A stretch of 64,000 nucleotides of DNA from Rhodothermales bacterium. GTDB lineage: Bacteria > Bacteroidota > Rhodothermia > Rhodothermales > JANQRZ01. Numbering within the stretch: the stretch's first letter is position 1; each line of letters begins with the position of its first letter. The position numbers and the translations under genes were made by a program. This document shows positions 3,947 through 43,252 of the stretch, piece by piece. Under the pieces are notes generated by a model. It saw nothing but the letters and a program-made list of their open reading frames with translations. It was not told the DNA's origin and made no database searches. The stretch spans positions 956,579-1,020,578 of the forward strand of contig OZ244038.1 in NCBI GenBank assembly GCA_965215145.1. The letters are read 5' to 3'.

Positions 3947-4975
3947 ATGAAGCCGAACAAGCCGCCCGTGATGCCGCTCCGCAACCGGATCTCCGTGTTC
4001 GCAGTGGAGCGGGGGAACGTCGAGGTGGACGGGCAGGCCCTCGTCGTCACGGACGTCCGCGGCGTGCGGGCACAGCTCCCCGTTGGGGCCTCGGCCGTGC
4101 TGATGCTGGAGCCGGGCACGACGATCACGCACGCCGCCGTCAAGCTCTGCGCCGAGAACCGGACGCTCATCATCTGGACGGGGGAGGCCGGCGTCCGCCT
4201 CTACAGCGCCGGGCAGGAGGGGGCGGCCCACTCGTATCGCCTCCTCCGGCAGGCCCGCCTCGCCCTCGACCCGAAGAGCCGGCTGGCCGTCGCCCGCGAG
4301 ATGTACCGGGTGCGGTTCTACGAGGAGCCCCCGCAGAAGCGCTCCATCGAGCAGCTCCGCGGGATGGAGGGCGCCCGCGTCCGCGCCACCTACCGCCGCC
4401 TCGCCGAGGAGTACGGCGTCGTGTGGGAGGGGCGTAACTACGACCGCTCGGACTGGGGGAGCCAGGACCCCGTGAACCGGGCCCTCTCCGCGGCGAACGC
4501 CTGCCTCTACGGGGTCTGCCACGCCGCCATCCTCATCGCGGGCTACAGCGCCGCGCTCGGGTTCATCCACACGGGCTACCCCCTCGCGTTCGTCCACGAC
4601 CTCGCCGACCTCTACAAGATGGAGCTCGCCGCGCCGACGGCGTTCCGCCTCGCGGCTGAGGACGAGGGCAACCTCGGCATGCGCGTCCGCCACGCCCTCC
4701 GCGACGGGTTCCGCCGCGTCAAGCTCCTGGAGGGGCTCATCCCCGGCATCGAGTCGCTCCTCGACGCAGGGGAGGGCGGGGCCGGGATGCCGGAGGAGCT
4801 GGGCGGGTGCCGGGTCGAGACGGCCGCGCCCGAGGACGCGCCGTGGCAGCGGAAGCCGCGCCTCCCGGACGCCCGCGCCGTCGCCGCCGAGCTCCACGGC
4901 GACCGCCCGCCCACGCCGCCGCGCCCGAAGCCGCCCTCGCCCCTCGACGACGCCGACGACGGCCTGCCCTTCTGA
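3947..4975 (+). CDS. cas1: CRISPR-associated endonuclease Cas1, type I-E, with a C-terminal Pro-rich extension
   Basis: PLRNRISVFAVERGNVEVDGQALVV...PVGASAVLMLEPGTTITHAAVKLCAENRTLIIWTGEAGVRLYSAG is collinear with E. coli Cas1e (YgbT). The product is 342 aa. Confidence 0.95.
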   Translation: MKPNKPPVMPLRNRISVFAVERGNVEVDGQALVVTDVRGVRAQLPVGASAVLMLEPGTTITHAAVKLCAENRTLIIWTGEAGVRLYSAGQEGAAHSYRLLRQARLALDPKSRLAVAREMYRVRFYEEPPQKRSIEQLRGMEGARVRATYRRLAEEYGVVWEGRNYDRSDWGSQDPVNRALSAANACLYGVCHAAILIAGYSAALGFIHTGYPLAFVHDLADLYKMELAAPTAFRLAAEDEGNLGMRVRHALRDGFRRVKLLEGLIPGIESLLDAGEGGAGMPEELGGCRVETAAPEDAPWQRKPRLPDARAVAAELHGDRPPTPPRPKPPSPLDDADDGLPF

Positions 4976-8126: not shown

Positions 8127-8132
8127 CCGCCG

Positions 8133-9875
8133 ATGCCTGAACCCCTCAACGTCTTTGAGCACCAGCGCTTCCGGCTCCGCACACCGGAGGGGGAGCGCGT
8201 CGAGCGCTCGTTCCGCGAGCTCCTCACCGAAGGGGACGCGGCTTACGCCCTCGATTACGCGCAGCCGTTCTACGACGTCGCCGCGCTGAACCTCCTCGCC
8301 TTCCTGACCCAGCTCGCCTTCGAGCCGGAGACGCCCGCTGCGCTGGCCGAGCGGGTGGCCCGGCCGATGACGGAGGCCGAGTTCGAGGAGGGGGTGGCCC
8401 CGCTCCGCGCCCGCTGCTCCCTCACTGGCTCCGGCCCCCGGTTCATGCAGGGGCCGGAGCCGGAGGAGCCGAAGAAGGCCGAGTCCCTCGACGTGGCCGT
8501 CCCCATCGCCCCGAAGGGCGACCGCCAGTTCCTCCACCGCGCCGATGCCGACTGGGCCGTGCCGCCCGAGCAGGCCGGCCTCTTCCTCTTCGCCCGGAAC
8601 ACGTTCTACGAGGGCACCGGCGGGCGTGGCTACCAGAAGGGCACCAACGGCGACACCCCCGTCCGCGCCCTCGTCACGGTCCCGGCCGAGAACGAAACGA
8701 TCTGGCTCCGAAAGAGCCTCTGGCTCAACGTGCTCGCGCGCGAGCAGCAGCGGACCTATTCCGGCGACTACGCCGACCGTGATGCGCTCCGCCCCGGCGA
8801 CTACGACGGCCTCTTCTGGGCCGACCCGCCCGCGGACGACGTCCCCGTCGGCGGCATCACGCTCCGGGCCGGGCTCGGGTGGATGACGGCCTACCACTGG
8901 CTGTGGTTCGAAGAAGGGGAGGGGGTCTGCCCCCTCACGGGCGAGCGCGCCGCCGGCCTCGTCGCCCGCACAGCGACGAAGCGGAGCACGGGCGTCGCCT
9001 ACGGCACGAAGGGCGACCTCGAAGGGGGCACCCGTGCCGACCGCCTCTTCCGCCACCCGAACGTGCCCACGGAGAAGCTCCGGAAGAAGGGCGAGGTCGT
9101 CGGGGAGCGGCCATTCCTCGTGGACCGGACGAAGGGGCTTGTGGACGCCGTCGGCGCCGCCTTCTTCGGCGGGCTGACGGACGAGACGGCGGCGCCCTAC
9201 ACGCTCGCCCCCGTCGTGGCCCAGCTCAACGCCCCGGCCGTCGGCCGCCTCGGCCTCTCGACGCGGCTGCTCGTCTTCGGCTTCCACATGCTGACGAAGC
9301 ATAAGAGCGTCCACGGTGGCGTCGAGCAGGACACGTTCGCCTACGACCCCGTGGCCCCGGACGCGGCCGAGGCGCTGCGGGTGATGGACGCCGCAGCCAA
9401 GCTGATGAAGGAGGCCACCGCCTTCGCCTCCGACGCTGCCCGCGCACTCGGACAGGCCGTGCAGCGGACGGCCGGTGCCGGCGTCCGGGCGCAGGAGGAC
9501 CCCGAGACGGGCCGGATCACGCTGAAGAAGCTGGAGTCGGTCCCGTCCGTGGACGACCCCTTCGGGCGCGACACGCTCGCTGCGTTCTGGCGTGCCGTCC
9601 AGCGCGCGCACCTCCCCGCCCACGCCGCCGCCATCACGGAGACCGCCCGGCGCGGCCCCGACGCGCTCTCGGAGAGGCGCCAGGCGCTCCAGCGGGAGTG
9701 GGAGGACGCCGTCGCTCGCGAGGTGTGGCGGCAGTACGGCCCCGTCTTCGAGCACTACAGCACGCTCCCCCGCACCATGCCCTACGCCCACGCCGCTCAG
9801 CGCCTCCTCGGGGGCGCCCTGAAGAAGCTCCGCTCCACCGCGCCCGAGACGGCGCCCCAACCCGCCGACGCATGA
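8133..9875 (+). CDS. cas8e: Cascade large subunit Cas8e (Cse1/CasA)
   Basis: A 580-aa ORF in the canonical position between cas3 and cse2. Its size and context fit Cse1. Direct motif recognition is weak. Confidence 0.75.
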   Translation: MPEPLNVFEHQRFRLRTPEGERVERSFRELLTEGDAAYALDYAQPFYDVAALNLLAFLTQLAFEPETPAALAERVARPMTEAEFEEGVAPLRARCSLTGSGPRFMQGPEPEEPKKAESLDVAVPIAPKGDRQFLHRADADWAVPPEQAGLFLFARNTFYEGTGGRGYQKGTNGDTPVRALVTVPAENETIWLRKSLWLNVLAREQQRTYSGDYADRDALRPGDYDGLFWADPPADDVPVGGITLRAGLGWMTAYHWLWFEEGEGVCPLTGERAAGLVARTATKRSTGVAYGTKGDLEGGTRADRLFRHPNVPTEKLRKKGEVVGERPFLVDRTKGLVDAVGAAFFGGLTDETAAPYTLAPVVAQLNAPAVGRLGLSTRLLVFGFHMLTKHKSVHGGVEQDTFAYDPVAPDAAEALRVMDAAAKLMKEATAFASDAARALGQAVQRTAGAGVRAQEDPETGRITLKKLESVPSVDDPFGRDTLAAFWRAVQRAHLPAHAAAITETARRGPDALSERRQALQREWEDAVAREVWRQYGPVFEHYSTLPRTMPYAHAAQRLLGGALKKLRSTAPETAPQPADA

Positions 9876-11764: not shown

Positions 11765-12514
11765 ATGCCCGGATTCCTCCTCCACCTCGTCGGGCCGATG
11801 CAGAGCTGGGCCGACACCGGCTTCGGCCAGCTCCGCGAGGCCGGTGAGTTCCCCAGCCGTGCCGCCGTCCTCGGCATCGTCGCCGCCGCCCTCGGCGTGC
11901 CCCGCGCCGATCCCCGGCTGCTCGACCTCCACGCGGCCCTGCGCGTCCATGCCGCGACGGTCCGGCCGGGTCGCGTCCTCCGGGACTTCCACACGGTCGA
12001 GACCCGCGAGGGCCGCCCCCGCACGCTCACCTCCCGCGACTACCACCACGACGCCCACTTCGTCGCGCTCGTCGAGGGCGACGACGCCGGGCTCATCGCC
12101 GAGGCCGAGGCGGCGCTGCGGCGGCCCGTCTTCGGGACGTTCCTCGGCCGGCGCTCCTGCCCTCCGGCCGAGCCGCTCCTGCCCGTCCCCGTGACGGGGG
12201 ACCCGTTCGAGGCGCTTTGCGACGCCACCCTTGCCACCGCCGAGGCGCTGCCCTGTCAGCCCTCGCGCTGGAGCGGCCGGTGGGGCCGCTCGTCCGACAT
12301 GCTGACGGTGTGGCTCGACGGGCACTACGCGAGCGACGAGGTGCCGACGGCGTTCGTAGGACCCGACACGTCGGTCTCCTATGGCAGTCGCCGCGCGCGC
12401 CTCGTCGGTCCCCGGCGGGCCTACGCCGCCACTCCCTTCACCCGCCTCCGCTTACCCCGCTCGGAGCCGGCGGGGGAGGACCCACACCAGACCTTCTTCG
12501 ATGCTGCACCTTAG
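11765..12514 (+). CDS. cas5: Cascade subunit Cas5e (CasD)
   Basis: MPGFLLHLVGPMQSWADTGFGQLREAGEFPSRAAVLGIVAAALG is the typical Cas5e N-terminus. The gene starts 4 nt after the cas7 stop. Confidence 0.85.
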   Translation: MPGFLLHLVGPMQSWADTGFGQLREAGEFPSRAAVLGIVAAALGVPRADPRLLDLHAALRVHAATVRPGRVLRDFHTVETREGRPRTLTSRDYHHDAHFVALVEGDDAGLIAEAEAALRRPVFGTFLGRRSCPPAEPLLPVPVTGDPFEALCDATLATAEALPCQPSRWSGRWGRSSDMLTVWLDGHYASDEVPTAFVGPDTSVSYGSRRARLVGPRRAYAATPFTRLRLPRSEPAGEDPHQTFFDAAP

Positions 12515-13193
12515 CCTCCTCCGCCTACCCCGACGTCACCGCCGCTGGCGCCACCTCGACCCGTACCAAGCCCACCAGCTCGCTTGGCAGGCGTTTCCCG
12601 GTGTGCCCCGCGGCGAGCGCCCGTTCCTCTTCAGCCTCGACGAGCGGGGGCCGCACCACAGCCTCCTCGTCCAGAGCACCCGCCCGCCGGACTGGGCCTT
12701 CCTCGACGGCGATGCCGACGTTCAGACGAAGGCGTTCGACCCGCACCAGATCCCTGCGGGCGAGCCGCTCCGGTTCTTCCTCCGGGCGAATCCGACCGTG
12801 GACCGGCGAGGCTTCGGCGACGGGAAAACGCGGCGGGTCGCCGTCGGTACGAACCCGGACCTCGCCTTCCGGCAGATGGGCCGCCCCGAGGACGCCCCCC
12901 GGACGCCCGCCGCGCGCGCCGAGTGGAGGGAGAGGGAGCTCCGGACGTGGATGCAGCGACAGGGCGAGCGTGGGGGGTTCGACGTCACCACCTGCGCGCC
13001 CGGCCCCATCGTGGGCCGCCGCGTGCAGCGCACGGAGGGGGGACGGCCCAAGGGCCGCCCGATGAAGTTCCACGAGGTGGAGTTCACCGGGACGCTGGAG
13101 GTGAGGGATCCAGAGGCGTTCGTGCGGTCCTATTCGGAGGGCGTAGGCAGGGGTCGTGCGTTCGGGTACGGCTTGCTGATGGTGCGCCCGTAG
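12501..13193 (+). CDS. cas6e: CRISPR RNA endoribonuclease Cas6e (CasE/Cse3)
   Basis: MLHLSLLRL...LDPYQAHQLAWQAFPG...FLFSLDE...HSLLVQS... and the C-terminal GVGRGRAFGYGLLMVRP are typical of Cas6e. The gene overlaps the cas5 end by 14 nt. Confidence 0.85.
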   Translation: MLHLSLLRLPRRHRRWRHLDPYQAHQLAWQAFPGVPRGERPFLFSLDERGPHHSLLVQSTRPPDWAFLDGDADVQTKAFDPHQIPAGEPLRFFLRANPTVDRRGFGDGKTRRVAVGTNPDLAFRQMGRPEDAPRTPAARAEWRERELRTWMQRQGERGGFDVTTCAPGPIVGRRVQRTEGGRPKGRPMKFHEVEFTGTLEVRDPEAFVRSYSEGVGRGRAFGYGLLMVRP

Positions 13194-13280: not shown

Positions 13281-15208
13281 CTCCTCCCCGCGCAGGCGGG
13301 GATGACCCGCACTAGACCAACCCGAAACCGCTTGCTCCATACTCCTCCCCGCGCAGGCGGGGATGACCCCCTCTCGCACCTCTCTACTGAGATGGGCCTG
13401 AGCTCCTCCCCGCGCAGGCGGGGATGACCCTGCGGACTGGAACCGCTCGACGAAAGTTTCCGCCTCCTCCCCGCGCAGGCGGGGATGACCCCCCCATGCC
13501 CCGCATCCCCGAGCCCCCCCGCGCCTCCTCCCCGCGCAGGCGGGGATGACCCCCGGGTCGCTCATTCGTCCGTCACGAGGCATTGCTCCTCCCCGCGCAG
13601 GCGGGGATGACCCGCCCAGCGTCGGCCTGCAACCGCTGGTTCTACGCTCCTCCCCGCGCAGGCGGGGATGACCCCATCAGGCCGAGGGCGCGGCGCTGGT
13701 CGGCGTCCTCCTCCCCGCGCAGGCGGGGATGACCCCGAATACAACCGCCTCCGCGCCGACGCGGAGGACTCCTCCCCGCGCAGGCGGGGATGACCCCTAC
13801 AGCCGCGGCGACCTCACGCAGCCGCTCGTCTCCTCCCCGCGCAGGCGGGGATGACCCGCCTGAACCCCCACCCCCACTCCTATGGCCGACCTCCTCCCCG
13901 CGCAGGCGGGGATGACCCCGGTCCCGCATACGCGAAAAACCGCTACGACGCCTCCTCCCCGCGCAGGCGGGGATGACCCCGAACGAGATCGGCCCGGTGC
14001 CGTTGAGGTCGTCTCCTCCCCGCGCAGGCGGGGATGACCCCTCGCCGTCCGACAGCCACGCCGGGATGCTGTCCTCCTCCCCGCGCAGGCAGGGATGACC
14101 CCGTATACCGCTGCCCCAGGCGGTGGGGCCGACGCTCCTCCCCGCGCAGGCGGGGATGACCCCGGATCGAACATGGCCGCAATGTCCTCGCCGCGGCTCC
14201 TCCCCGCGCAGGCGGGGATGACCCCGCGGCGCAGAATGGCCGATTTCGGCCCCCTCGCTCCTCCCCGCGCAGGCGGGGATGACCCTGCTCCACCCTCAGT
14301 TATCGGTCAGCCTACGAGCTCCTCCCCGCGCAGGCGGGGATGACCCTCGCTGTCGCGGGCCGTCTGAACTACGCACTCCCTCCTCCCCGCGCAGGCGGGG
14401 ATGACCCCGGGGCCCAGACGCCGTTCGTGTGGCCCATTGACTCCTCCCCGCGCAGGCGGGGATGACCCCGGCCACTTCGACGCCGCGGCTGCGCTGCTGC
14501 CCTCCTCCCCGCGCAGGCGGGGATGACCCCCACGTCGGCCAGTCCCCACCGCCGTTGGCGAGCTCCTCCCCGCGCAGGCGGGGATGACCCGCCAAACTCA
14601 CGATCGAGTTGGCGGAACAGGTCCTCCTCCCCGCGCAGGCGGGGATGACCCCCCCTGCTAGGTTCCAAGCGTCCATAGCACCGGCTCCTCCCCGCGCAGG
14701 CGGGGATGACCCCGCCGCCCTCGACACCCTCCTCAGGTTGCTCCCCTCCTCCCCGCGCAGGCGGGGATGACCCGCGGCCGTCTCGAAGACGATCCGCCAG
14801 GGCATCCTCCTCCCCGCGCAGGCGGGGATGACCCCCTCTGATTGAGCGGAACTGCCACCCTTGGTCTCTCCTCCCCGCGCAGGCGGGGATGACCCGCGGT
14901 ATTCCCTCCGCCGCGACGGCCCCAGCTTCTCCTCCTCGCGCAGGCGGGGATGACCCTCACAAGGCGGGGTTCCCGAGCCTCGTTTTCATCTCCTCCCCGC
15001 GCAGGCGGGGATGACCCCTCGTCGGCGCGCTGCATCTCGCCGCCGGTGCCCTCCTCCCCGCGCAGGCGGGGATGACCCGTAAACCCACTACCCCCCTACC
15101 CCCCTACCCCCCTACGTTGCTCCTCCCCGCGCAGGCGGGGATGAACCTGAGCATCGTTTCCTAACGCTCCCGTTGGATGGCTCCTCTCCGTCTATGAGTG
15201 GAGGAGCC
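13281..15208 (+). CRISPR. Type I-E CRISPR array with 31 well-conserved repeats, one decayed terminal repeat and 31 spacers
   Basis: The 28-nt core CTCCTCCCCGCGCAGGCGGGGATGACCC (plus a variable 29th base) recurs with 61-bp phase from 13281 to 15120. Exceptions are spacings of 62 bp at 14135->14197 and 69 bp at 15051->15120. Variant repeats are at 14074 (G>A), 14929 (C>T) and 15120 (..GATGAACC). A 19/28-matching remnant lies at 15181..15208, exactly in phase. The ...GGGGATGACCC orientation parallels the E. coli I-E repeat. Confidence 0.97.
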
Positions 15209-15278: not shown

Positions 15279-15737
15279 CTAGAGCCGGACGATGGCGTGG
15301 GTGACGACGCCGAACACCCGGAGGTCCTGCCCCTCACCCACGTAGACCGGCGCGTACGCCGCGTTCGCCGACTCCAGGAACGCCCGCCGACGCGGCCCCC
15401 GCCCCTCCAGGCGCAGCCGCTTCACGAGGTACTCCCCGTCCACCGCCGCCACGACGACGTCGCCGTCCTTCGGCTCCCGCGCCCGGTCCACCACCAAAAG
15501 GTCGCCCTCCCCGATCCGGACCCCCTCCATCGAGTCCCCCTCGACCTCGACGAAGAACGTCGCCGCCGCGTCGCGGACGAGGTGCTCGTTGAGGTCGAGC
15601 TTCCGGTCGACGAACGCCTCGGCCGGCGAGGCGAACCCGGCGGCGGGGCGGGGGCGCAGCAGCGGGAGGGCGAGCGAGGACGCCTCCGCGCAGGCGAGGA
15701 AGCGGGCAGCGCGGAGAGGGTAACGGGCGGGCTCCAT
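15279..15737 (-). CDS. umuD: UmuD-like S24 peptidase (translesion polymerase V accessory subunit)
   Basis: PAAGFASPAEAFVDRKLDLNEHLVRDAAATFFVEVEGDSMEGVRIGEGDLLVVDRAREPKDGDVVVAAVDGEYLVKRLRL is collinear with E. coli UmuD. It has the A-G cleavage site, the Ser in GDSM and the Lys in VKRL. Start taken at MEPARYPL. Confidence 0.85.
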   Translation of the reverse strand: MEPARYPLRAARFLACAEASSLALPLLRPRPAAGFASPAEAFVDRKLDLNEHLVRDAAATFFVEVEGDSMEGVRIGEGDLLVVDRAREPKDGDVVVAAVDGEYLVKRLRLEGRGPRRRAFLESANAAYAPVYVGEGQDLRVFGVVTHAIVRL

Positions 15738-15851
15738 AGGAAGGCACGTGATGCAGGACGCGAGGGGGCGAAGGTAAGGTCGGGGAGAGCACGGGCGTCC
15801 TCCTTGTAGACACCGCCTCCCGAACCGGACGGACTCTCCCAAAGCGAGCGC

Positions 15852-17252
15852 TCAGCCGAACCGGACGCGCGGGAGCTCCCCCCACCTAGTCGTATAAGCC
15901 GGGCTCTTCGACTCGCGCCGCATCGCCCACGCCTGCCCCGTCTCCGCCTCGGCCTCCTCCCCGCGCGTTCCACAGGCTGCGAAGAACGCCGCCGGACGCC
16001 CCCCACCGCCCCGACCGTACCGGGCGTTGACGCGGTCCACCGCCGCGAGCAGCGCGTCTGCCTGTGCCCCCTCCCGCGCCGCGGCGAAGAGCCGGCCCTG
16101 CTCCGGCCGCGCCCGCGTGACATCGAGGACGACGACCCCGCACTTCCGGTACGGGTACGGCCGCCCCCGTCCGTCCCGCCCCTGCCACACCGTGTCCGTG
16201 AGCCTCCGGCACACCGCGAGCACCTCCGGCGTCCGGTTCGTCGCGCCCGCGAGCTCGGCGGCCAGCGCGCCCGAGCGGTGGGGGCCGCGCGCGCCCTCGT
16301 GGCCCGTGTTCAGGAAGACCTGCACGGCCCGCGCGGCGAGCCCCTCACGGCGCAGCGTCTCGCAGGCGCGGGAGGCGTGCGTGGCGACGGCCTCCCGGAC
16401 CTCGGCGAGCGCCGTCACGGGGCGGCCGAACGAGCGGCTCCGGACCATGCTCTTCCGTGGCGGGGGCGCCTCCTCCAGTGGGATGCACGAGAGGCCGCGG
16501 AGCTCCAGCACGGTACGGAGGCCGGTGACCCGGAGGTGCTGGCGGACCCACGCGTCCGGCCGGTCCCGGAGGTCCTTCGCCGTGGTCACCCCGAGCCCCA
16601 GGAGGCGGCGCCCGTAGGCGCGGCCGACCCCCCACACGTCGCCGACGGGCGTCGCGGCGAGGACGGCGTCGAGGGCGTGCGGGGGGAGGCCGTGGAGGGC
16701 GACGGCCGGCTCCTCCCCCCGCCTCGCGAGCCGCTTCGCGTGCACGCTCCCCACCTTCGCGAGCGTCTTCGTCGGGGCGACCGAGACGCGGACGGGGATC
16801 CCGGTCGCGCGGAGGACGGCGCGGCGGACCTCGCGGGCGAGCGCCGTGAGCTCGGCGTGGGCGCGGTGGGGGTCCGGTGGCGTGGGGAAGACGAGGAAGG
16901 CCTCGTCGATGGAGTAGACCTCGGCGCGGGGCGTGAAGCGCCGGAGCACGGCCATGACGCGGGCGCTCAGGTCAGCGTAGAGCGCGTAGTTCGAGCTGAA
17001 GACGACGGTGCCAACTGCCTCCAGCCGCTCGCGGACGCGGAAGTAGGGCGCGCCCATCTTCACGCCGAGGGCCTTGACCTCCTCGCTCCGGGCGACGACG
17101 CAGCCGTCGTTGTTGGAGAGGACGGCGACGGGGCGGCCGTGGAGGTCGGGGCGGAAGAGGCGCTCACAGGCGCAGTAGAAGTTCTCGCCGTCGACGAGGG
17201 CGAAGAGGCGGCGGGGGGGACCTGCGGGTCGGCTGTAGAGGGCAGGAGGCAC
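15852..17252 (-). CDS. umuC: Y-family DNA polymerase, UmuC/RumB-like
   Basis: LFALVDGENFYCACERLFRPDLHGRPVAVLSNNDGCVVARSEEVKALGVKMGAPYFRV is nearly collinear with the E. coli UmuC N-terminus. Confidence 0.9.
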   Translation of the reverse strand: MPPALYSRPAGPPRRLFALVDGENFYCACERLFRPDLHGRPVAVLSNNDGCVVARSEEVKALGVKMGAPYFRVRERLEAVGTVVFSSNYALYADLSARVMAVLRRFTPRAEVYSIDEAFLVFPTPPDPHRAHAELTALAREVRRAVLRATGIPVRVSVAPTKTLAKVGSVHAKRLARRGEEPAVALHGLPPHALDAVLAATPVGDVWGVGRAYGRRLLGLGVTTAKDLRDRPDAWVRQHLRVTGLRTVLELRGLSCIPLEEAPPPRKSMVRSRSFGRPVTALAEVREAVATHASRACETLRREGLAARAVQVFLNTGHEGARGPHRSGALAAELAGATNRTPEVLAVCRRLTDTVWQGRDGRGRPYPYRKCGVVVLDVTRARPEQGRLFAAAREGAQADALLAAVDRVNARYGRGGGGRPAAFFAACGTRGEEAEAETGQAWAMRRESKSPAYTTRWGELPRVRFG

Positions 17253-17300
17253 GGGAGGCAGACGCGCTGAGGGGGAGGGGCGGCCGACGTAACGGCGGGG

Positions 17301-17325
17301 GGCGTGACAGGAGCCGTGTCACGCC
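17301..17325. promoter_or_regulatory. Palindrome upstream of umuC (candidate operator or hairpin)
   Basis: GGCGTGACA-ggagccg-TGTCACGCC has 9-bp perfect arms and starts 49 nt upstream of the umuC ATG. I do not recognise it as a known LexA box. Confidence 0.25.
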
Positions 17326-17957
17326 CTCATTCTGGGGACCGCAGAAGTCCGTCCGAGCGGATGAGTGCGAGCACTCCGTCTACTCTGGAACGGAAAGGGA
17401 GGCTGTGCAGCGGTGGCGCATGGCTCCCCCGTGGTTCATCGGCAACCACCGCGTACCGGGCGGGTGGTGCCACACGTCCTCCCCCTCTGTGCAGCCTCCG
17501 GCGCACTGCCTACTATAGCCGAGTATTCGCAGATAGGCCCCTCGAAAAGGCGTCGCGCCGGGGGAAGGGGCAGACGTATTTCCCGCTCTGATCGGGCGCC
17601 CGTTTCGAGGGTACCCCGGTTCGGATCAAAGGCGACACACCGGACGCCGTGCGTGCCCACCCACGACGGAGCCCTGCTTCCCCTCGGGAGGCGGGGCTCC
17701 GCGCTTCTACGGCCGGGGAGGTCCCGGCCCCGACGGTGCTCTGTGCACCGCGGTTCACATCCCCGCTAACCAAGAGGTCCCCCATGCCCACGCGCTCCCG
17801 CGGCCCGCCGCGACCACACCCGCAGGCGGCACGCCCGCCTAGACCTACTCCTACACAAACGAAGCCCGCTCCCCCTGCTGAGGGAGCGGGCTTCGCCGTT
17901 TCCGGCCGGTCGGTGATGACGCACCGACCGGCCTCACACGAAGACCAAGAGGTCACC

Positions 17958-18974
17958 ATGCAGTACGCGATCAAGCTACACGACGAACAAGCCCTCGTCC
18001 ACAGATCCACTCGCAGCCACCCCCTCAGCGTCCGCCTCGTCCGTGAGAGCGGCACGGCCTACCGGCTCCCCGCCGCCGACGCCTACGCGAAGCGCCTCGC
18101 CGAGGAGGCGGAGCGCTGGCTCGACCACGTCCGCGAGCGGAGCCGGATGAAGGAGGAGACCCTCGTTCGGAAGGCCCTCCACAGCGTCGCCTTCAGCCTC
18201 CGCCACCGCGCCCACGACCTCGCCGTCCCGACGAAGCTCGCCGGCACGGCGAAGCACCAGCGCCAGCTCTGGGAGGCCGTCCGCGCCCGCGTCCCCCTCG
18301 GTACCCCGCTCGACATCCACGAGGAGCGGGACGGCCAGGGTGACGGCGGACGCGTCCGCCTCGCTGTCTCCCACGACGGCGAGCGGCTCGGCGAGGTCCA
18401 ACCGAAGCACGTCGGCTGGTTCGCTCCGCTCGTCCCCTTCGGGGCCGGCGTCTTCCTCACCCGCGTGACCGGCCACGAGACGGAGGGGTACCGCCTCGGC
18501 ATGAACGTCTGCTTCGGCCGTGTAGGAGGCGCCGTTAGCGCGCTCCGGCACGCGCTCGGCACCGACCTCGGCGGCGACGGCAGCGGCCCGCAGAGCGGCG
18601 CTGAGGCGGCCGTAGCGCTCCGCCCGGTGCCCGCTCCGGCGCGGGTCCACGGCGGCGACGGGGCGGCCGGGTCCCCGCCCGCTCTGGCTTCCGAGGACGT
18701 TCGCCTCTGGCGTGACCGGGACGGCACGGCCCACGCCTCCGTCCCCCACGCCGTCCGGCACTCGCCGACGGGCGTCGAATGGGGCTACGGCGGCAGTGGC
18801 CCGGCCGACCTCGCTCGGAGCGTGCTCCTCCGCTTCGCCGACGAGGCCACGGCCGAGCGGCTCTACCAGCTCTACAAGGCCGAGGTCATCGCCCGTGTCC
18901 CCGAGGCTGGAGGCACGATCCGCGCCGCCGACGTGCGGGCGTGGCTCGCTGTCCACACCGACGGCCCCTGCTGA
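17958..18974 (+). CDS. Hypothetical protein with a C-terminal WGYGGSGP (DUF6166-like) domain
   Basis: A 338-aa ORF starting at MQYAIKL, preceded by AAGAGG. The C-terminus reads HSPTGVEWGYGGSGPADLARSVLLRF...LYQLYKAEVIARVP. The central block reads KHVGWFAPLVPFGAGVFLTRVTGHETEGYRLGMNVCF. It is co-directional with ardC and radC. Confidence 0.6.
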   Translation: MQYAIKLHDEQALVHRSTRSHPLSVRLVRESGTAYRLPAADAYAKRLAEEAERWLDHVRERSRMKEETLVRKALHSVAFSLRHRAHDLAVPTKLAGTAKHQRQLWEAVRARVPLGTPLDIHEERDGQGDGGRVRLAVSHDGERLGEVQPKHVGWFAPLVPFGAGVFLTRVTGHETEGYRLGMNVCFGRVGGAVSALRHALGTDLGGDGSGPQSGAEAAVALRPVPAPARVHGGDGAAGSPPALASEDVRLWRDRDGTAHASVPHAVRHSPTGVEWGYGGSGPADLARSVLLRFADEATAERLYQLYKAEVIARVPEAGGTIRAADVRAWLAVHTDGPC

Positions 18975-19014
18975 TCCCCCGTAGGAGAGCCTACATCCAC
19001 AACCACACCCGACC

Positions 19015-19054
19015 GAGAGGCCGGGCCCTGCCACATGGCGGGGTCCGGCCTCTC
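19015..19054 (+). terminator. Intergenic stem-loop (GAGGCCGGGC...GGGGTCCGGCCTC family)
   Basis: gagaggccgggccc-tgccacatggcg-gggtccggcctctc forms a stem of about 14 bp. It lies between the 17958 gene and ardC. There is no T-tract. Confidence 0.4.
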
Positions 19055-19069
19055 CCATTCGTACCGACC

Positions 19070-20068
19070 ATGACGATTAAGCACACCACGACCAACCACG
19101 CCGCCCCGAGCCAGCTCGCCCTCGGGCTCACGACCCCGCTGCTCTCCCGCGCCGAGCAGGCCGCCCGCCCCGACCGCCAGAGCCGCCTCGACGCTGCCAG
19201 CGCCGTCCTCGCCCGCGGCCTCTCCGGCGTCCGCGACGACCCCGCCGCGCTCGGGGCCTACCTCGCCTTCCGCGCCCACTTCCGCAGCTACTCCCCCCGC
19301 AACGCCCTGCTCATCTGGATGCAGCGCCCGACGGCCCGCTACTGCATGGGCCTCCGGGCGTGGACGAGGCACGGCCGCCGCGTCCGGCGCGGCGAGCGCG
19401 GGATCACGGTCCTCGCGCCCGTCCTCAGGAAGCCGACGGCGGAGGAAGTCGCGGCCGGCGAGGACCCCGAAGAGCGTGTGCCGGCGGGCTTCCGGACGGC
19501 GACGACGTTCGACTACGAGCAGACGGAGCCCGTGGACGACGACGCCCTCGTCTACAGCCCGCCCGTGCCCCGTCTGGGCACCGAGGGGCCGGAGGGGCTC
19601 CTCGGGCGGCTAGAGGCCGCGGCCGAGCGAGTGGGCTGTTCTGTCCACTACACGGCCCTCGGCTATGCCGACGGGTGGTACCGCGCCTCCGACCGGTCGA
19701 TCTGCATCCGAGCCGGCCTGAGCGGGGCCGACCGGGCGGCTGTGCTGTGCCACGAACTGGCGCACGCCGTCGCCCACTCTCGGGGTGAGCGCCCGGACGA
19801 CGACCCACAGGAGACGCCGGCATCCGAGGCCGCAGGCGTGCGGAGCCGGGCGTCTGAGGAGCTCCAAGCCGAGGGGGCGGCCTACGTCGCGCTCGCCGCG
19901 CTCGGGCTCGACACGGCGCGCGCCAGCCTGCCCTACTTGAAAGGCTGGGCCGAGGGAGACGACGACGCCCTCTCAGGAGAGCTCGCCGCCATCGACCGGA
20001 TCGCCGGCCGGCTGCTCGCACTCATCGACGGGCCAGCCGGAGAGGACGGCACGGAGGCCACCGCCTAG
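19070..20068 (+). CDS. ardC: ArdC-like antirestriction protein (N-terminal ssDNA-binding DUF1738 domain plus C-terminal HExxH metalloprotease-like domain)
   Basis: The N-terminal block reads FRSYSPRNALLIWMQRPTARYCMGLRAWTRHGRRVRRGERGITVLAP. The C-terminal block reads AAVLCHELAHAVAHS. Confidence 0.8.
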   Translation: MTIKHTTTNHAAPSQLALGLTTPLLSRAEQAARPDRQSRLDAASAVLARGLSGVRDDPAALGAYLAFRAHFRSYSPRNALLIWMQRPTARYCMGLRAWTRHGRRVRRGERGITVLAPVLRKPTAEEVAAGEDPEERVPAGFRTATTFDYEQTEPVDDDALVYSPPVPRLGTEGPEGLLGRLEAAAERVGCSVHYTALGYADGWYRASDRSICIRAGLSGADRAAVLCHELAHAVAHSRGERPDDDPQETPASEAAGVRSRASEELQAEGAAYVALAALGLDTARASLPYLKGWAEGDDDALSGELAAIDRIAGRLLALIDGPAGEDGTEATA

Positions 20069-20102
20069 CCGCACCCCCACTCAACACGTACCGACTCACC
20101 AG

Positions 20103-20140
20103 CCACGAGGCCGGGCTCCTTCTGGGGTCCGGCCTCGTGG
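20103..20140 (+). terminator. Intergenic stem-loop, second copy of the GAGGCCGGGC...GGGGTCCGGCCTC hairpin
   Basis: ccacgaggccgg-gctccttctggggt-ccggcctcgtgg is followed by cgtttcc. It lies between ardC and radC. Confidence 0.45.
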
Positions 20141-20156
20141 CGTTTCCGAACCAGCC

Positions 20157-20717
20157 ATGAACACGACCCACACAGCTCGCTCCCGCACCCGTCACCCCTA
20201 CCGCGACCGCCACACGCCCGACCTCTTCGCCTCTACACCGACGGGCCGCGCCGAGCCCGCCGCACCGCCCGCCCTGCAGGAGCGCTTGCGAGTGCCCGTC
20301 TTCTCGGTACGCCTCGTCCGCGAGCGCGACCACCTGACCGAGCAGATCACCTCCCCCGCCGACGCCGCTCGGTTGTGCTGCGAGCTCCTCGATGGCCTCG
20401 ACCGCGAGGTCTTCCTCGTCGTCGCACTGTCCACGGCGAGCCGCGTCATCGGCGCTCACGTCTGCCACGTCGGCAGCCTCGATGCCTCGATCGCGTGCGG
20501 GAGGGAGGTATTTCGGTTTGCTGTCCTAACTTGTGCGAAATCAACAATTGTCGCCCATAATCATCCCTCGGGCAACCTCGAACCGTCGCGGGCGGACGTG
20601 GAGGTGACTCAGCAACTGAAGGCGGCGGGGGAGGCGCTGGGGATTGGACTCCTTGACCACGTCATCGTCGGGTTCGAGGGGGCCTACACCTCGCTCGCCG
20701 AGCGGGGTCTACTCTAG
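20157..20717 (+). CDS. radC: RadC-like JAB/MPN domain protein
   Basis: The JAMM motif reads STIVAHNHPSGNLEPSRADVEVTQQL, followed by LLDHVIVG. Confidence 0.85.
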   Translation: MNTTHTARSRTRHPYRDRHTPDLFASTPTGRAEPAAPPALQERLRVPVFSVRLVRERDHLTEQITSPADAARLCCELLDGLDREVFLVVALSTASRVIGAHVCHVGSLDASIACGREVFRFAVLTCAKSTIVAHNHPSGNLEPSRADVEVTQQLKAAGEALGIGLLDHVIVGFEGAYTSLAERGLL

Positions 20718-20860: not shown

Positions 20861-20905
20861 CATAACCGCAAGCCCCTCCTAGCAATGGCTTGCCAAGAGG
20901 GGTAG

Positions 20906-20979
20906 TGGGTCCGGCTGGATTCGAACCAGCGACCCCTCGCGTGTGAGGCGAGTGCTCTAAACCACTGAGCTACGGACCC
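20906..20979 (-). tRNA. tRNA-Val (anticodon CAC)
   Basis: The reverse complement folds as a cloverleaf: GGGTCCG-TA-GCTC-AGTGGTTTA-GAGC-A-CTCGC-CTCACAC-GCGAG-GGGTC-GCTGG-TTCGAAT-CCAGC-CGGACCC-A. CCA is not encoded. Confidence 0.9.
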
Positions 20980-25915: not shown

Positions 25916-26143
25916 GAGCGCTACGTCTCGGAGCGCTACGTCTCGGAGCGCTACGTCTCGGAGCGCTACGTCTCGGAGCGCTACGTCTCGGAGCGCTACG
26001 TCTCGGAGCGCTACGTCTCGGAGCGCTACGTCTCGGAGCGCTACGTCTCGGAGCGCTACGTCTCGGAGCGCTACGTCTCGGAGCGCTACGTCTCGGAGCG
26101 CTACGTCTCGGAGCGCTACGTCTCGGAGCGCTACGTCTCGGAG
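25916..26143. repeat. 15-bp tandem repeat GAGCGCTACGTCTCG x15, plus a 3-nt partial unit
   Basis: There are fifteen perfect contiguous units in 25916..26140. Read on the minus strand they give (RDVAL)15 in the OrfB frame and contain the OrfA TAG stop in the OrfA frame. Confidence 0.97.
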
Positions 26144-26505
26144 GGGGCCGTAGCGTCGGGAGCCCCCTTCTTCGCCCCCGCCGCCTTGGGGTGGGCGCGC
26201 ACGACGGTCCCGTCGAGCATGACCGCGGCGAGGTCGGCGTGCCCGGTGTCGCGGAGGTGCTCGAAGGCCCGCTCCCAGACGCCCGAACGGGACCAGCGCT
26301 TGTGGAGTTGGGCGGCGCGCCACCAGGGCCCGAACTCGGCGGGGACGGCGCGCCAGGGTGGGCCGTTCTTGAGGCGCCAGACGACGCCCTCGACGGTGGC
26401 GCGCTCGTCGCGGACGGGGCGGCCTCGACCGGAGCGGGCGTGGTCGAGGGCGGCTTTGAGGGCGGCTTTGAGGGCGGCCCACTCGGGGTCAGTCAGCAAG
26501 GGCAT
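26131..26505 (-). CDS. IS transposase OrfA (DUF4096-like N-terminal HTH part)
   Basis: MPLLTDPEWAAL...RGRPVRDERATVEGVVWRLKNGPPWRAVPAEFGPWWRAAQLHKRWSRSGVWERAF...LDGTVVRAHPKAAGAKKG is the typical IS5/IS427 N-terminal half. Confidence 0.75.
   Translation of the reverse strand: MPLLTDPEWAALKAALKAALDHARSGRGRPVRDERATVEGVVWRLKNGPPWRAVPAEFGPWWRAAQLHKRWSRSGVWERAFEHLRDTGHADLAAVMLDGTVVRAHPKAAGAKKGAPDATAPSET
26446..26478. repeat. 12-bp tandem repeat (GAGGGCGGCTTT, about 2.75 copies) inside transposase OrfA
   Basis: Units lie at 26446..26457 and 26458..26469, with a partial unit to 26478. They encode AALKAALKAAL in frame. Confidence 0.85.
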
Positions 26506-26614
26506 GGCGTCCGTGGCGAGAGCCGGGTCAACGTCACGCCGAACCGATTTGTCTCACACGGCCTAGCGCCGCCAAGCCAAGATCGGGTGACCGAGAGTAG
26601 GGCAGGCACAAAGA

Positions 26615-30464: not shown

Positions 30465-33400
30465 CTACGCCACCGCCTCTGGCTCCTCCTCATCCTCCCC
30501 CACCTCGTCCTCCTCCGCCTCGCCCTCCTCGCCCGTGAGCGCGTCGAGGTCCACGGACGAGGGGCACGCGCCGACCGTCTCCTCGGCGCTGCCGCGCTCC
30601 AGCTCCTCCCGGACGAACGGCGCCGTCGCGGTGTCGGCCGCGGCCAGCTCCTCCGGCGTCCCGGTGAACACGATCTCGCCGCCCGCGTCGCCGCCGCCGG
30701 GGCCGAGGTCCACGACGTAGTCGGCCACCTTGACCACGTCGGTGTTGTGCTCGATCACGAGGACCGTGTTCCCCTTCTCGACGAGGGCCTGGAGCACGTG
30801 CAGCAGGTGGCGGATGTCCTCGAAGTGGAGGCCCGTCGTGGGCTCGTCGAGGATGTAGAGCGTGGAGCCGGTGCCGGGCCGCGAGAGCTCCTTCGAGAGC
30901 TTGACCCGCTGCGCCTCGCCGCCGGAGAGGGTCGTGGCCTGCTGCCCAAGGCGGATGTAGCCGAGCCCGACGGCGTCGAGCGTGCGGAGCTTCCGCGCGA
31001 TCCGCGGGACGGCCTCGAAGAACGCCAGTGCCTCCGAGACCGGCATCTCCAGCACCTCGGCGATGGTCCGCCCCTTGTAGCGGACCTCCAGCGTCTCGGC
31101 GTTGTAGCGCCGCCCCTTGCACGTCTCGCAGGCGACGTACACGTCCGGGAGGAAGTTCATCTCCAGCTTCACGATGCCCGCGCCCTTGCACGCCTCGCAC
31201 CGCCCGCCCTTCGTGTTGAAAGAAAAACGGCCGGGCTTGTAGCCGCGGATCTGGGCCTCGGGCGTCCGCGCGAACAGCTCGCGGATGAGCGTGAACAGGC
31301 CGGTGTACGTCGCGGGGTTCGAGCGGGGCGTCCGCCCGATGGGGCTCTGGTCGATGGCGATCACCTTGTCGACGTGCTCCAGCCCCTCGACGTCGCGGTG
31401 GGGGAGCGGGACGCTCTGCGCGTTGTGGAAGTGCGCGGCCAGCAGCGGGTGGAGCGTCTGGTTGATGAGGCTCGACTTCCCGGAGCCCGAGACGCCGGTG
31501 ACGGCCGTGAGCGTCCCGAGCGGGAGCTCGAGGGTCACGTCGCGGAGGTTGTGCCCCCGCGCGCCGATCAGCCGGAGCGTGTGCCCGTTGCCCGCCCTCC
31601 GCTCGGCGGGGACCGGGATGCGGCGCTCGCCGGTGAGGTAGGCCACCGTGAGGCTGTCCGTAGGGGCGTGATTAATCACGCCCCTACCCGCCACGATCTC
31701 CTCCGGCGTGCCCGCGCCTAACACGTGGCCGCCGTACTCCCCCGCGCCCGGGCCGAGGTCCACCACGTAGTCCGCCGCCTCGATCATCTCCCGGTCGTGC
31801 TCGACGACGAGGACCGAGTTGCCGAGGTCGCGGAGCGCGTCGAGGCTGTCGATGAGCTTGCCGTTGTCGCGGGGGTGGAGGCCGATGCTCGGCTCGTCGA
31901 GGACGTACAGGACGCCGGTGAGCTGGGTCCCGATCTGGGTGGCGAGGCGGATCCGCTGGCTCTCGCCGCCGGAGAGCGTCCGCGCCGAGCGGTCGAGGGT
32001 GAGGTAGTCGAGGCCGACGTTGAGGAGGAAGTCGAGGCGCTCGGTGATCTCCTTCACGATGGGCTCGCCGATCACGGCCTGCCGGCCTTCGAGCTCGAGA
32101 TCCGCGAACCACCGGCGGAGCGTGCGGAGGTCCATCCCGACGAGGTCGGCGATGCGCTGGTCGCCGTCGTAGGTGCCGGTGTTGCCGACGCGGTAGCTCA
32201 GGCTCTCCGGCTTGAGGCGCCCGCCGCCGCACGTCCGGCACGCGCGGACCCGCATGAACGCCTCGGCCCACTTCCGCTGGACCGACGAGTTGGTGTTCTC
32301 GTAGGTGTGCCAGACGTGCTGGTAGACGCCGCCGAACCGGTGCTGGTACTTCACCTCCCGCCCCTTGTACTTGTAGACGATGTCGAACTGCTCGTCGCCG
32401 GCGCCGTCGAGGAGCACCTCCCGCTGCCGCTCCGTCAGCTTCTCGACCGGCGTGTCGAAGTCGAACCCGTATCGGTCGGCGACGGCGCGGAGCTGGGAGA
32501 AGACCCACACGTCGCGCGGCCTCCCGAGCGGGACGACGCCGCCCTGGGCGATGGTCTTCGACGGCTCGGGCACGACGAGGTCCGGGTCGATCTCCTTTTT
32601 GACGCCGAGGCCGTTGCAGGCCGGGCACGCGCCGTAGGGGCTGTTGAACGAGAACGTGTTCGGGGAGGGGTCGTCGTAGCTCAGCCCGCCGGCGGGGTCG
32701 GTGAGGTGGCGGCTCATGAGGTGGTCCCCCACCAGATCATCACCGTCGGGAGCCGACAGCACCTGCGCGATCAGCGTGCCCCCGCCCATCCCGAGGGCCA
32801 GCTCGGCGGCGCGGGCGATCCGGGGGCGGACGCCCTCCTTCACCACGAGCCGGTCCACCACCACCTCGATGTCGTGGACGCGGTAGCGGTCGACCTTCAT
32901 CCCCTTCGTGATCTCGCGGAGCTCGCCGTCGACGCGGACGCGCTCGAAGCCCTGCTTGGCGAGCTGCTCGAAGAGGTCGCGGTAGTGGCCCTTCCGGCCG
33001 CGCACCACCGGCGCGAGCACGATCACCCGCGTCCCCTCGGGGAAGGCGAGGACGGTGTCGATGATCTCGTCGTCACTCTGCCGCCGCATCGGCCGGCCGG
33101 ACTTGTACGAGTAGGCGTCGGCGGCGCGGGCGTAGAGGAGCCGGAGGAAGTCGTAGATCTCCGTCACCGTCCCGACCGTGCTCCGGGGGTTCCGGGAGAC
33201 CGTCTTCTGCTCGATGGCGATGACGGGGGAGAGCCCGTCGATGAAGTCCACGTCCGGCCGCTCCATCACCCCGAGGAACTGGCGGGCGTAGGCGGAGAGC
33301 GACTCCATGTAGCGCCGCTGCCCCTCGGCGTAGATGGTGTCGAAGGCGAGGCTCGACTTGCCGCTGCCGGAGAGCCCGGTGATGACGACGAGGCGGTTGC

Positions 33401-43224: not shown

Positions 43225-43252
43225 GTAGGGGCGCAGCGCGCTGCGCCCCTAC
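43225..43252. repeat. 28-bp perfect palindrome GTAGGGGCGCAGCGCGCTGCGCCCCTAC (REP-like)
   Basis: Seen directly between the TolC-like stop (43268) and the adaptor start. Confidence 0.95.

Follow-up and report, generated by a model that had tools for sequence, protein, structure and literature searches.

The 64-kb stretch of Rhodothermales bacterium DNA analysed here (contig OZ244038.1, bp 956,579–1,020,578 of the forward strand; this whole stretch is called the window, and all positions are in its coordinates) carries a small operon that encodes a DUF6166-domain protein, an ArdC-like anti-restriction protein and RadC. A gap at 17253–17957 separates the DUF6166 gene from the divergent umuC gene, and the right-hand two thirds of this gap (about 17510–17957) is a conserved 5′ control region of the DUF6166-ArdC-RadC operon. 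On balance we favor the view that this region is an RNA-level leader with a functional upstream open reading frame (uORF) and intercistronic hairpins. The more specific idea of a switch that joins ribosome arrest to transcription termination is, when judged by itself, a tentative one.

Conservation and structure of the DUF6166 leader

Loci that encode DUF6166 homologs in genomes, metagenomes and assemblies (given L-numbers here) were compared. One layout recurs in the Rubricoccaceae, in which divergent S24 peptidase and umuC genes lie on one strand and small genes, the DUF6166 gene, sometimes ArdC, and RadC lie on the other. The DUF6166 gene is always preceded by a chain of hairpins that ends in a conserved start box, and this leader is syntenic and alignable though the DUF6166 proteins are only 46–64% identical; an earlier, sequence-only reading of the gap had asked for such conservation beside homologous modules, and it is present. 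In the nine loci of alignment A3, whose proteins span this same range of identities, CTCA, GACC, GGTC and ATG are invariant columns. The window's own subfamily (L061, L063, L147, L148, L149, L231 and L232, with proteins about 57–64% identical to that of the window) has near-invariant ACGAAGCCCG…CGGGCTTCG (the outer stem of hairpin A, described below), CCTCA, GACC-loop-GGTC and ATG. Locus L150 was left out of the counts; it has an inverted duplication around a run of N at 4330–4460 that is probably an assembly artefact at a strong hairpin.

The conserved region begins with an AT-rich block (ACTATAG..TATTCGC, ACTATAGCCGAGTATTCGC; 17512–17530, + strand), which is a candidate promoter or operator. 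TATTCGC(G) is found at the equivalent place in L003, L018, L021, L065, L066, L147, L150 and L231, and ACTATAG in L063 and L231. The head of the leader is marked by the block CGTTTCGAGG (17601–17610, +). In L003, L014, L018, L021, L022, L065, L066 and L150 an exact + strand copy of the 10-mer precedes the first + strand gene, and L147, L148, L063 and L231 have near-identical copies. The exact 10-mer is also present in L017, some 2.7 kb upstream, and in the unrelated loci L029 (+) and L190 (−); within the window it is not enriched above chance. The sequences CCCTCGAAAAGG (17539–17550) and CCGTTTCGAGGG (17600–17611), which lie 49 nt apart, are complementary at 11 of 12 positions, so that the CGTTTCGAGG block could possibly pair with upstream sequence; a similar ACCTCGA/TCGAGGT pair is seen in L150 and is not clear in the other relatives. 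A promoter scan returned 0 sites matching the sigma-70 consensus or −35/−10 hexamers.

The RNA downstream of this point is strongly structured (17600–17975, z = −6.5), whereas the left half of the gap (17330–17600) is not unusually so (z = −1.0), and an inverted repeat there (17398–17416/17481–17499) was set aside as neither conserved nor thermodynamically unusual. The first module of the leader contains three hairpins (17667–17701, with 16 bp that include two U·G pairs, 17711–17729 and 17730–17753; all +) and leads to the first of two copies of the 11-mer ACCAAGAGGTC (17769–17779, +), the ribosome-binding site of the uORF. Between the uORF start and hairpin A runs a C-rich, G-poor tract (17784–17859, +; 38 C and 17 G) that includes a local hairpin at 17800–17838. 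Hairpin A (+) has a perfect 14-bp stem (17860–17873/17882–17895) and an 8-nt loop and is followed by GCCGTTTCC; it is terminator-like and marks the DUF6166 leader as its signature hairpin. Hairpin B (+), with a perfect 12-bp stem (17904–17915/17922–17933) and a 6-nt loop, varies in sequence among relatives and retains its structure. The leader ends in the DUF6166 translation-initiation box (17932–17960, +), which is made up of the invariant CCTCA, a GACC-AAGA-GGTC mini-hairpin and ATG 17958, and the second copy of ACCAAGAGGTC (17944–17954, +), the Shine-Dalgarno (SD) sequence of the DUF6166 gene, is held in this mini-hairpin. ATG 17784, which opens the uORF, and ATG 17958 lie 174 nt apart in the same frame with no intervening stop codon. 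All the features that the sequence-only reading listed here are there, with small corrections: its AT-rich patch near 17510–17550 is real, hairpin B, the duplicated 11-mer and the two in-frame ATGs stand as it gave them, and hairpin A is present with a stem of 14 rather than 13 bp. Taken by itself, the 11-mer repeat is no more than chance would give (P ~0.16 in Markov simulations of the region).

The hairpins covary. Covariation is found in the inner stem of hairpin A and in the whole of hairpin B, whose inner helix has compensatory changes at all five of its five pairs. Paired cells make up 92.7% of the alignment's stem positions against 85.1% in shuffles, and 11 pairs have compensatory changes where 4.4 are expected; neither value was reached in any of 500 shuffles, and controls in which the structure was slid along the alignment gave only about 40% pairing. 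The outer stems are conserved in sequence as well as structure (GAAGCCCG, GAGAGGCCGG) and within the window are restricted to the operon. The corresponding signature, GA[ACG]GCCCG…CGGGC[TGC]TC, occurs once in the window and once or twice in each of 23 related loci, in nearly all of which it lies about 100–200 nt upstream of the DUF6166 start; L007 and L064 have a second copy where the operon begins, and L019 and L022 hold a single one elsewhere. Searches of viral contigs did not find the leader pattern.

The leader module also recurs within its own operon. A covariance model (R1), built from the alignment of hairpin A, hairpin B and the start box, was searched over 562 kb; it scores 88–118 bits on the DUF6166 leaders of the window's subfamily and 21–50 bits in more distant loci. 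Weaker R1 matches lie at 17661–17789 (+; 28.6 bits, E = 1.8e-6), ending at the uORF ATG, at 19000–19075 (+; 25 bits, E = 2.4e-5), before ArdC, and at 20090–20162 (+; 26.1 bits, E = 1.1e-5), before RadC. These sites and the DUF6166 leader are the only matches in the window, apart from one to the symmetric hairpin A stem on the minus strand, and R1 matches equivalent junctions in L064, L066, L011, L016, L017, L018, L020 and L065. The intercistronic hairpins before ArdC (19015–19054, +) and RadC (20102–20141, +, followed by GTTTCC) each have 18 bp with two sense-strand G·U pairs, and each ends 15 nt before the ATG. Six of the 11 strong hairpins of the window fall within 17298–20141. The module consists of a GC hairpin, a T-rich tail (30% T in the 12 nt after the stems, compared to a background of 15%) and a start codon, with weaker copies before the uORF, ArdC and RadC. 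Since a simpler hairpin-plus-start copy precedes both ArdC and RadC, the hairpins appear to punctuate every cistron, and the finding of two paralogous module copies by R1 indicates that the two ACCAAGAGGTC…ATG sequences are the ribosome-binding sites of the uORF and of the DUF6166 gene.

STAXI and some other Rfam motifs are linked to anti-restriction or single-stranded DNA genes, and the leader is like STAXI in being a structured element that is repeated close to the anti-restriction genes carried by integrative elements of the Bacteroidota lineage. It differs in that no Rfam family, STAXI included, meaningfully matches 16800–18400; a scan with E values up to 10 gave only sub-threshold matches, the best at 24 bits against a gathering cutoff of 50 (P37).

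The upstream open reading frame

The sequence-only reading saw no convincing open reading frame in the gap, but ATG 17784 opens a real small one whose first nine codons are conserved as amino acids in relatives; a frame of this kind was among the findings that, on that reading's own terms, would refute its proposal. It begins MPTRSRGPPRPHPQAA…, is preceded by the first ACCAAGAGGTC box, and stays open until it runs in frame into ATG 17958. Its conserved core, MPTRSRGPP (17784–17810, +), includes R-G-P-P at codons 6–9 (17799–17810). All seven members of the subfamily that have upstream sequence (the window and six relatives) have a uORF with an R-x-P-P core: MPTRSRGPPRP in the window, MPTSARGPPRPP in L232, MPTRSRSPPQ in L063, MPTRQRGPPP in L148, MSTRQRGPPP in L231, MSTRDPPARR in L061 and MNSHARGPPR in L147. 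The core is therefore RGPP in five loci (window included), RSPP in one (L063) and RDPP in one (L061). An SD-like GAGG lies 5–10 nt before the uORF ATG in six of the seven (window, L061, L063, L147, L148 and L231; not L232), and in six loci the uORF is 150–200 nt upstream of the DUF6166 gene.

Among the codons for the conserved residues (Thr, Arg, Gly and Pro codons), third positions vary in six of six, first positions in three of six and second positions in two of six; because third positions vary while the residues are kept, the first nine codons are under selection at the protein level. The residues N-terminal of the core, of which there are only five, are likewise conserved (M-P/S-T-R-x) with synonymous codon changes, and in L061 a two-codon deletion has left a core that is still rebuilt as RDPP. 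Beyond about codon 15, sequence, frame and stop position diverge: the uORF has 17, 18, 30, 32 and 48 codons in five loci, and that of L231 overlaps the main ATG out of frame. In L232 the uORF ends 19 nt before a 73-aa Cys-rich gene, which in turn precedes hairpin A and the DUF6166 gene, so that the uORF and the hairpin A/B module are separable units.

The G+C content of third codon positions (GC3) is 0.67 in 17784–17957 compared to 0.91 in the DUF6166 gene, and by this measure 17811–17957 does look noncoding, so the earlier description of the gap as noncoding fails for 17784–17810. The low GC3, together with the alignment of homolog N-termini, which supports 17958 as the DUF6166 start, makes it probable that the in-frame fusion of uORF and DUF6166 gene in the window is incidental. 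An attenuator that chooses between two translation starts, one of the possibilities raised by the sequence-only reading, comes close to this evidence: both ATGs are genuine starts, but one opens the uORF and the other the main gene.

Ribosomes stall at the peptidyl-transferase centre on the tetrapeptides RAPP and RGPP; RGPP is the most robust core, is refractory to elongation factor P and is the most avoided tetrapeptide in bacterial proteomes, and RSPP and RDPP are partly permissive (PMC12992588). The RGPP, RSPP and RDPP variants of the uORF are exactly this published set of arresting and partly permissive cores. About five residues N-terminal of the core modulate stalling (PMC10951233). Known arrest peptides of this kind include ApdA, ApdP, CruR and the RGPP uORFs of Streptomyces lividans, and the SecM core is a related RAGP (PMC12992588, PMC10951233, PMC7897499). 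The uORF is like them in being a small reading frame upstream of, and co-oriented with, the genes that it would regulate, and in its Arg-x-Pro-Pro core (RGPP here, RSPP and RDPP in relatives) with conserved residues just N-terminal to it. It differs in having no signal peptide or membrane segment that might exert a pulling force, and no room for a signal sequence; in that the downstream genes are mobile-island anti-restriction genes; and in that two hairpins and about 150 nt separate it from the start that it would regulate, while stalling is here a prediction.

Candidate mechanism and alternatives

Wobble pairs bear on which strand folds. Internal non-Watson-Crick positions flanked by Watson-Crick pairs were counted in 47 distinct intercistronic hairpins, and they comprise 50 G·U on the sense strand and 12 A·C (which are G·T on the template strand; p = 1e-6), a count that a C-to-T bias on the non-template strand could inflate. 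Three hairpins in the window have two sense-strand G·U pairs each, none has an internal A·C, and the single A·C of hairpin A is next to its loop. This bias is as expected for structures selected in mRNA. A first count, on DUF6166 leaders alone, gave 42 versus 55, with stem ends extending by chance, and the signature hairpin alone gives 11:3 for the window's subfamily and 10:11 for the other one. The folding energy of the whole leader is better for the minus strand in 27 of 29 loci, but this comparison is confounded by the C-rich linkers, which are G-rich on the other strand, and was not used.

The mechanism that we propose would run as follows. Transcription would start somewhere near the TATTCGC and CGTTTCGAGG blocks, and the mRNA leader would fold into a series of GC-rich hairpins. 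The first ACCAAGAGGTC ribosome-binding site (17769) would drive translation of the uORF (MPTRSRGPP…), and a ribosome paused at codons 8–9 would leave the C-rich tract at 17811–17859 and hairpin A uncovered, so that Rho or hairpin A itself could then stop transcription. If ribosomes escaped the stall, the transcript would stay covered and transcription could continue into the operon. Initiation of the main gene at 17958 uses a separate ribosome-binding site, the second ACCAAGAGGTC, in the conserved mini-hairpin, which could act as a translational brake, and the later hairpins before ArdC and RadC may be partial terminators or mRNA stabilizers. Stalling by the uORF, its coupling to termination and the direction of the switch are each predictions. 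A C/G ratio of 2.2 in the tract from uORF to hairpin A (2.6 in L063, 2.5 in L148, 2.1 in L231, 1.9 in L061 and 1.3 in L147, against 1.2 in the gene) resembles the composition of a Rho loading site, and it is the C-rich, G-poor character of this tract, along with the T-enriched hairpin tails, that leads us to favor an RNA-level leader.

Salmonella mgtL/mgtP and E. coli tnaC are proline-codon leader open reading frames coupled to Rho or hairpin attenuation. As in those systems, a short leader frame is proposed to set the exposure of C-rich leader RNA to termination, through the speed of translation at Pro codons or through an arrest site; the difference is that folding gave no alternative stem-loops in this leader, whose sequence is unrelated to theirs. 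In its fullest form the proposal is that, in a family of Rhodothermales integrative islands, the anti-restriction operon opens with a minimal nine-codon R-G-P-P arrest peptide without a sensor domain, which together with the repeated, sequence-conserved hairpin module would make expression of DUF6166, ArdC and RadC depend on the host's translational state, such as that shortly after arrival in a new host; we put this forward as a speculative possibility.

Several observations weigh against the favored leader and its proposed switch. No antiterminator pairing was found when the stall footprint was forced to be single-stranded, as hairpins A and B and the SD box were unchanged in six of six loci, and the hairpins do not pass a scan for canonical terminators, which asks for 5 or more T in 8. 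The uORF stop lies anywhere from 8 to more than 90 codons downstream of the motif, and neither it nor the sequence after the core is conserved, whereas known RAPP/RGPP motifs lie toward the C-terminal end of longer proteins, most of them secreted or in the membrane; here the motif is at codons 6–9 with five residues before it. The motif alone is reported not to suffice in some contexts (PMC12992588). There are only seven uORF examples, and PPRPP..VR is common to the uORF and to the N-terminal end of the product of the first small gene in the other subfamily (L066), so that the uORF could be the remnant of a lost gene. The G·U bias is absent from the subfamily-A pre-DUF6166 hairpin taken alone (10 versus 11).

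The alternative that survives best, although we consider it unlikely, makes no use of regulation by the uORF: the hairpins would be ordinary intrinsic terminators or 3′-end stabilizers, the ACCAAGAGGTC boxes strong ribosome-binding sites, and the uORF a nonregulatory leftover of a small Cys- or Pro-rich gene. Relatives in the other subfamily do carry real genes (71–102 aa and about 173 aa) at the place of the uORF, and the first gene of L066 begins MTHPPRPPSEVR, which resembles the ..GPPRPPARVR of the L232 uORF; tblastn found no trace of the 173-aa gene in the window, and a deleted copy of it hidden in the gap was rejected as a candidate. A decaying remnant, however, would not be expected to preserve MPTRxRGPP by synonymous changes among loci with DUF6166 proteins as divergent as those of this subfamily, nor to rebuild R-x-P-P as RDPP after the L061 deletion, and ordinary proteins are reported to avoid RGPP strongly (PMC12992588). 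The T-enriched tail after each hairpin, the lack of alternative pairing between uORF and hairpin A and the variable uORF stop all agree with the leftover explanation, whereas outer stems that are conserved in sequence and confined to the operon do not. Intercistronic stem-loops are familiar as partial terminators or 3′ stabilizers, as in repetitive extragenic palindromic (REP)-type elements and the hairpins of the Rhodobacter puf operon. The hairpins here are similarly GC-rich, lie directly after stop codons within an operon on the sense strand and have a U-enriched tail, but they are limited to one operon family rather than spread genome-wide, keep the sequence of their outer stems even in distant relatives and are coupled to a conserved start-codon box.

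It is quite improbable that the inverted repeats are instead sites in double-stranded DNA, serving either as operators bound by a dimeric regulator that the element encodes or as hot spots of recombination at which gene cassettes are shuffled. In its favor, the outer arms are conserved in sequence beyond what pairing needs, and the gene content between modules varies: ArdC is absent in six loci (L061, L063, L148, L149, L150 and L231), L147 has RadC followed by ArdC, and Cys-rich genes (73 or about 173 aa) occur in some loci and not in others. The repeated modules may be recombination points for cassette-like shuffling. Nevertheless, strand-biased G·U pairs and compensatory changes in the inner stems fit a folded single strand and not a duplex operator, and a position 15–60 nt before each ATG in a co-oriented operon fits RNA signals better. 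Integron attC sites were considered and rejected: inspection of the hairpin flanks found no attC-type R/L boxes, and the integrase domains found were all of the tyrosine 'Phage_integrase' kind, with no integron integrase (IntI-type) gene beside the hairpins.

The sequence-only reading had suggested that the gap might hold single-stranded DNA promoters of the kind found in plasmid leading regions, or an element structured like an origin of transfer. The layout does match. Anti-defence islands of plasmid leading regions are bounded by oppositely oriented umu genes (PMC11541004), and here ArdC/RadC-type genes lie on one strand next to a divergent umu operon, with a structured element repeated before each gene on the same strand like copies of Frpo, in an island that abuts a tRNA-Val gene and whose relatives carry tyrosine integrases. 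As far as they are described in the summary of Masai and Arai (1997) given in PMC11541004, Frpo/ssi elements resemble the leader in this repetition before co-oriented anti-defence-type genes beside a divergent umu operon; the hairpins here are about ten times shorter, have no −35/−10 elements, fold best in the sense and not the template strand, have no conjugation genes nearby and share no sequence similarity with them.

A promoter of the Frpo type must fold in the template strand. We consider it very doubtful that the island is a remnant of a conjugative leading region with Frpo/ssi-like promoters or priming signals on the incoming strand, because its 12–18-bp stems are too short to rebuild a −35/−10 duplex and the hexamers were not found, the minus strand folds as single-stranded DNA only into local 12–18-bp hairpins, the sense-strand wobbles would be C·A mismatches in the template strand, the hairpins of ArdC and RadC are tied to start codons and the module also to a translated uORF, neither relaxase nor type IV secretion domains turned up in the scanned reading frames of the window or among the called genes within about 10 kb in the relatives that have gene calls, and nothing similar is present in Rfam or, by blastn of 17253–17957, in the 72,556 plasmids of PLSDB, where F-type plasmids with Frpo are expected. 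The sense bias of the wobbles, the short stems and the lack of hexamers and conjugation genes thus favor mRNA structure over a single-strand promoter or an origin of transfer.

The umu operon and the surrounding island

To the left of the gap, the umuC/IMS polymerase gene (15852–17252, −; Pfam IMS, IMS_C and DUF4113) is followed by an S24 peptidase gene (15279–15842, −; Pfam Peptidase_S24). The palindrome GGGCGTGACA-N7-TGTCACGCCC (17300–17309/17317–17326) lies 48 nt upstream of the umuC start at 17252; its arms are 10 bp long, one more than in the sequence-only reading, which had placed it at 17301–17325. It occurs once in the window, and a (G)TGACAC-N6-TGTCAC element is found 45–60 nt upstream of the S24/umu operon in five further loci (L064, L007, L004, L066 and L065). 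It is a conserved operator-like site of the divergent umu operon and lies outside the DUF6166 leader. Published LexA motifs are GGA-N5-TCC and CTAA-N5-TTAG in Bacteroidetes (PMC8565304) and a direct repeat in Balneolaeota (PMC7739468), and the palindrome matches none of these. The divergent S24/umuC synteny is also seen in L064, L065 and L066, where S24 comes first, beside the conserved palindrome, while umuC is first and S24 second in the window; the window's umu operon is therefore rearranged.

To the right, the DUF6166 gene (17958–18974, +; 338 aa, Pfam PF19663, 4e-20) is the first long gene of the operon, and an identical 338-aa protein (P0001) is present in public data. The N-terminal part of the protein (residues 1–240) was found only in Rhodothermales, Rubrivirga and Bacteroidota-labelled loci, and the C-terminal domain of about 90 aa occurs alone on many viral contigs (L151–L230) and plasmids. 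On the Hymenobacter plasmid NZ_CP010057.1 (L233, 9182–9541) this domain lies a few genes downstream of umuD/umuC, beside a SIR2-Piwi (prokaryotic Argonaute, pAgo) defence pair. The ArdC-like gene (ATG 19070, stop 20068, +) is recognized by Pfam ArdcN and by a PHROG family annotated as 'anti-restriction protein'; a 70-nt tRNA-Arg(CCG) call by ARAGORN inside it (19355–19424) is probably a false positive. The RadC gene (20157–20717, +; Pfam, 4e-36) is followed by a tRNA-Val(CAC) gene (20905–20979, −) whose 3′ end faces RadC, and beyond it lie housekeeping genes (an extracytoplasmic function (ECF) sigma factor, holA, uvrA and type IX secretion system (T9SS)-sorted proteins).

The operon is part of a small chromosomal island in a Rhodothermales/Rubricoccaceae-like genome; the G+C content of the window is 72%, and the closest relatives of its genes are in Rubrivirga, Rubricoccus and uncultured Rhodothermales. 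The position of tRNA-Val suggests that the island is the remnant of an element integrated there. Neither an integrase nor a direct repeat of the tRNA-Val end was found in the window, and a search for an integration scar (a direct repeat of the tRNA-Val 3′ end) gave only a chance-level inverted 12-mer. The Pfam search for relaxase and type IV secretion domains, which was negative, covered 20 reading frames (the island, a few cas genes and frames out to about 43 kb).

On its left the island abuts a CRISPR array (about 13585–15100, period 61, repeat CTCCTCCCCGCGCAGGCGGGGATGACCCC) directly downstream of type I-E cas genes (Cse1 at 8127–9875, Cas6e at 12360–13193), and in the relative L066 cas genes also adjoin the DUF6166-ArdC-RadC operon. 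The array ends in a fourfold tandem of CCCCCTAC (15084–15115). Two palindromes with the same arms, GTAGGGGCG…CGCCCCTAC, each with a perfect 12-bp stem, lie at 31660–31687 in the uvrA reading frame and at 43225–43252 at the 5′ end of a HlyD-family reading frame, and these and the CCCCCTAC tandem may belong to a family of short dispersed repeats. A DUF4096 reading frame (26131–26553, −), the N-terminal part of an IS4/IS5-family transposase, marks an insertion sequence or a fragment of one.

For annotation, ATG 17784 should not be used as the start of the DUF6166 gene, and the boundaries between cistrons in this island family can be recognized by the repeated hairpin module. An island with the layout of a plasmid leading region can use signals at the mRNA level in place of single-strand promoters. 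If the uORF does stall ribosomes, it would be among the shortest natural R-x-P-P arrest units, and an arrest unit placed over mobile-island anti-restriction genes is not described in the papers cited above. The proposed gating, if true, would extend RAPP/RGPP arrest control to the anti-defence genes of mobile elements and to an as yet undescribed motif position and length, and stalling at this site would link nascent-peptide arrest with the early expression of anti-defence genes.

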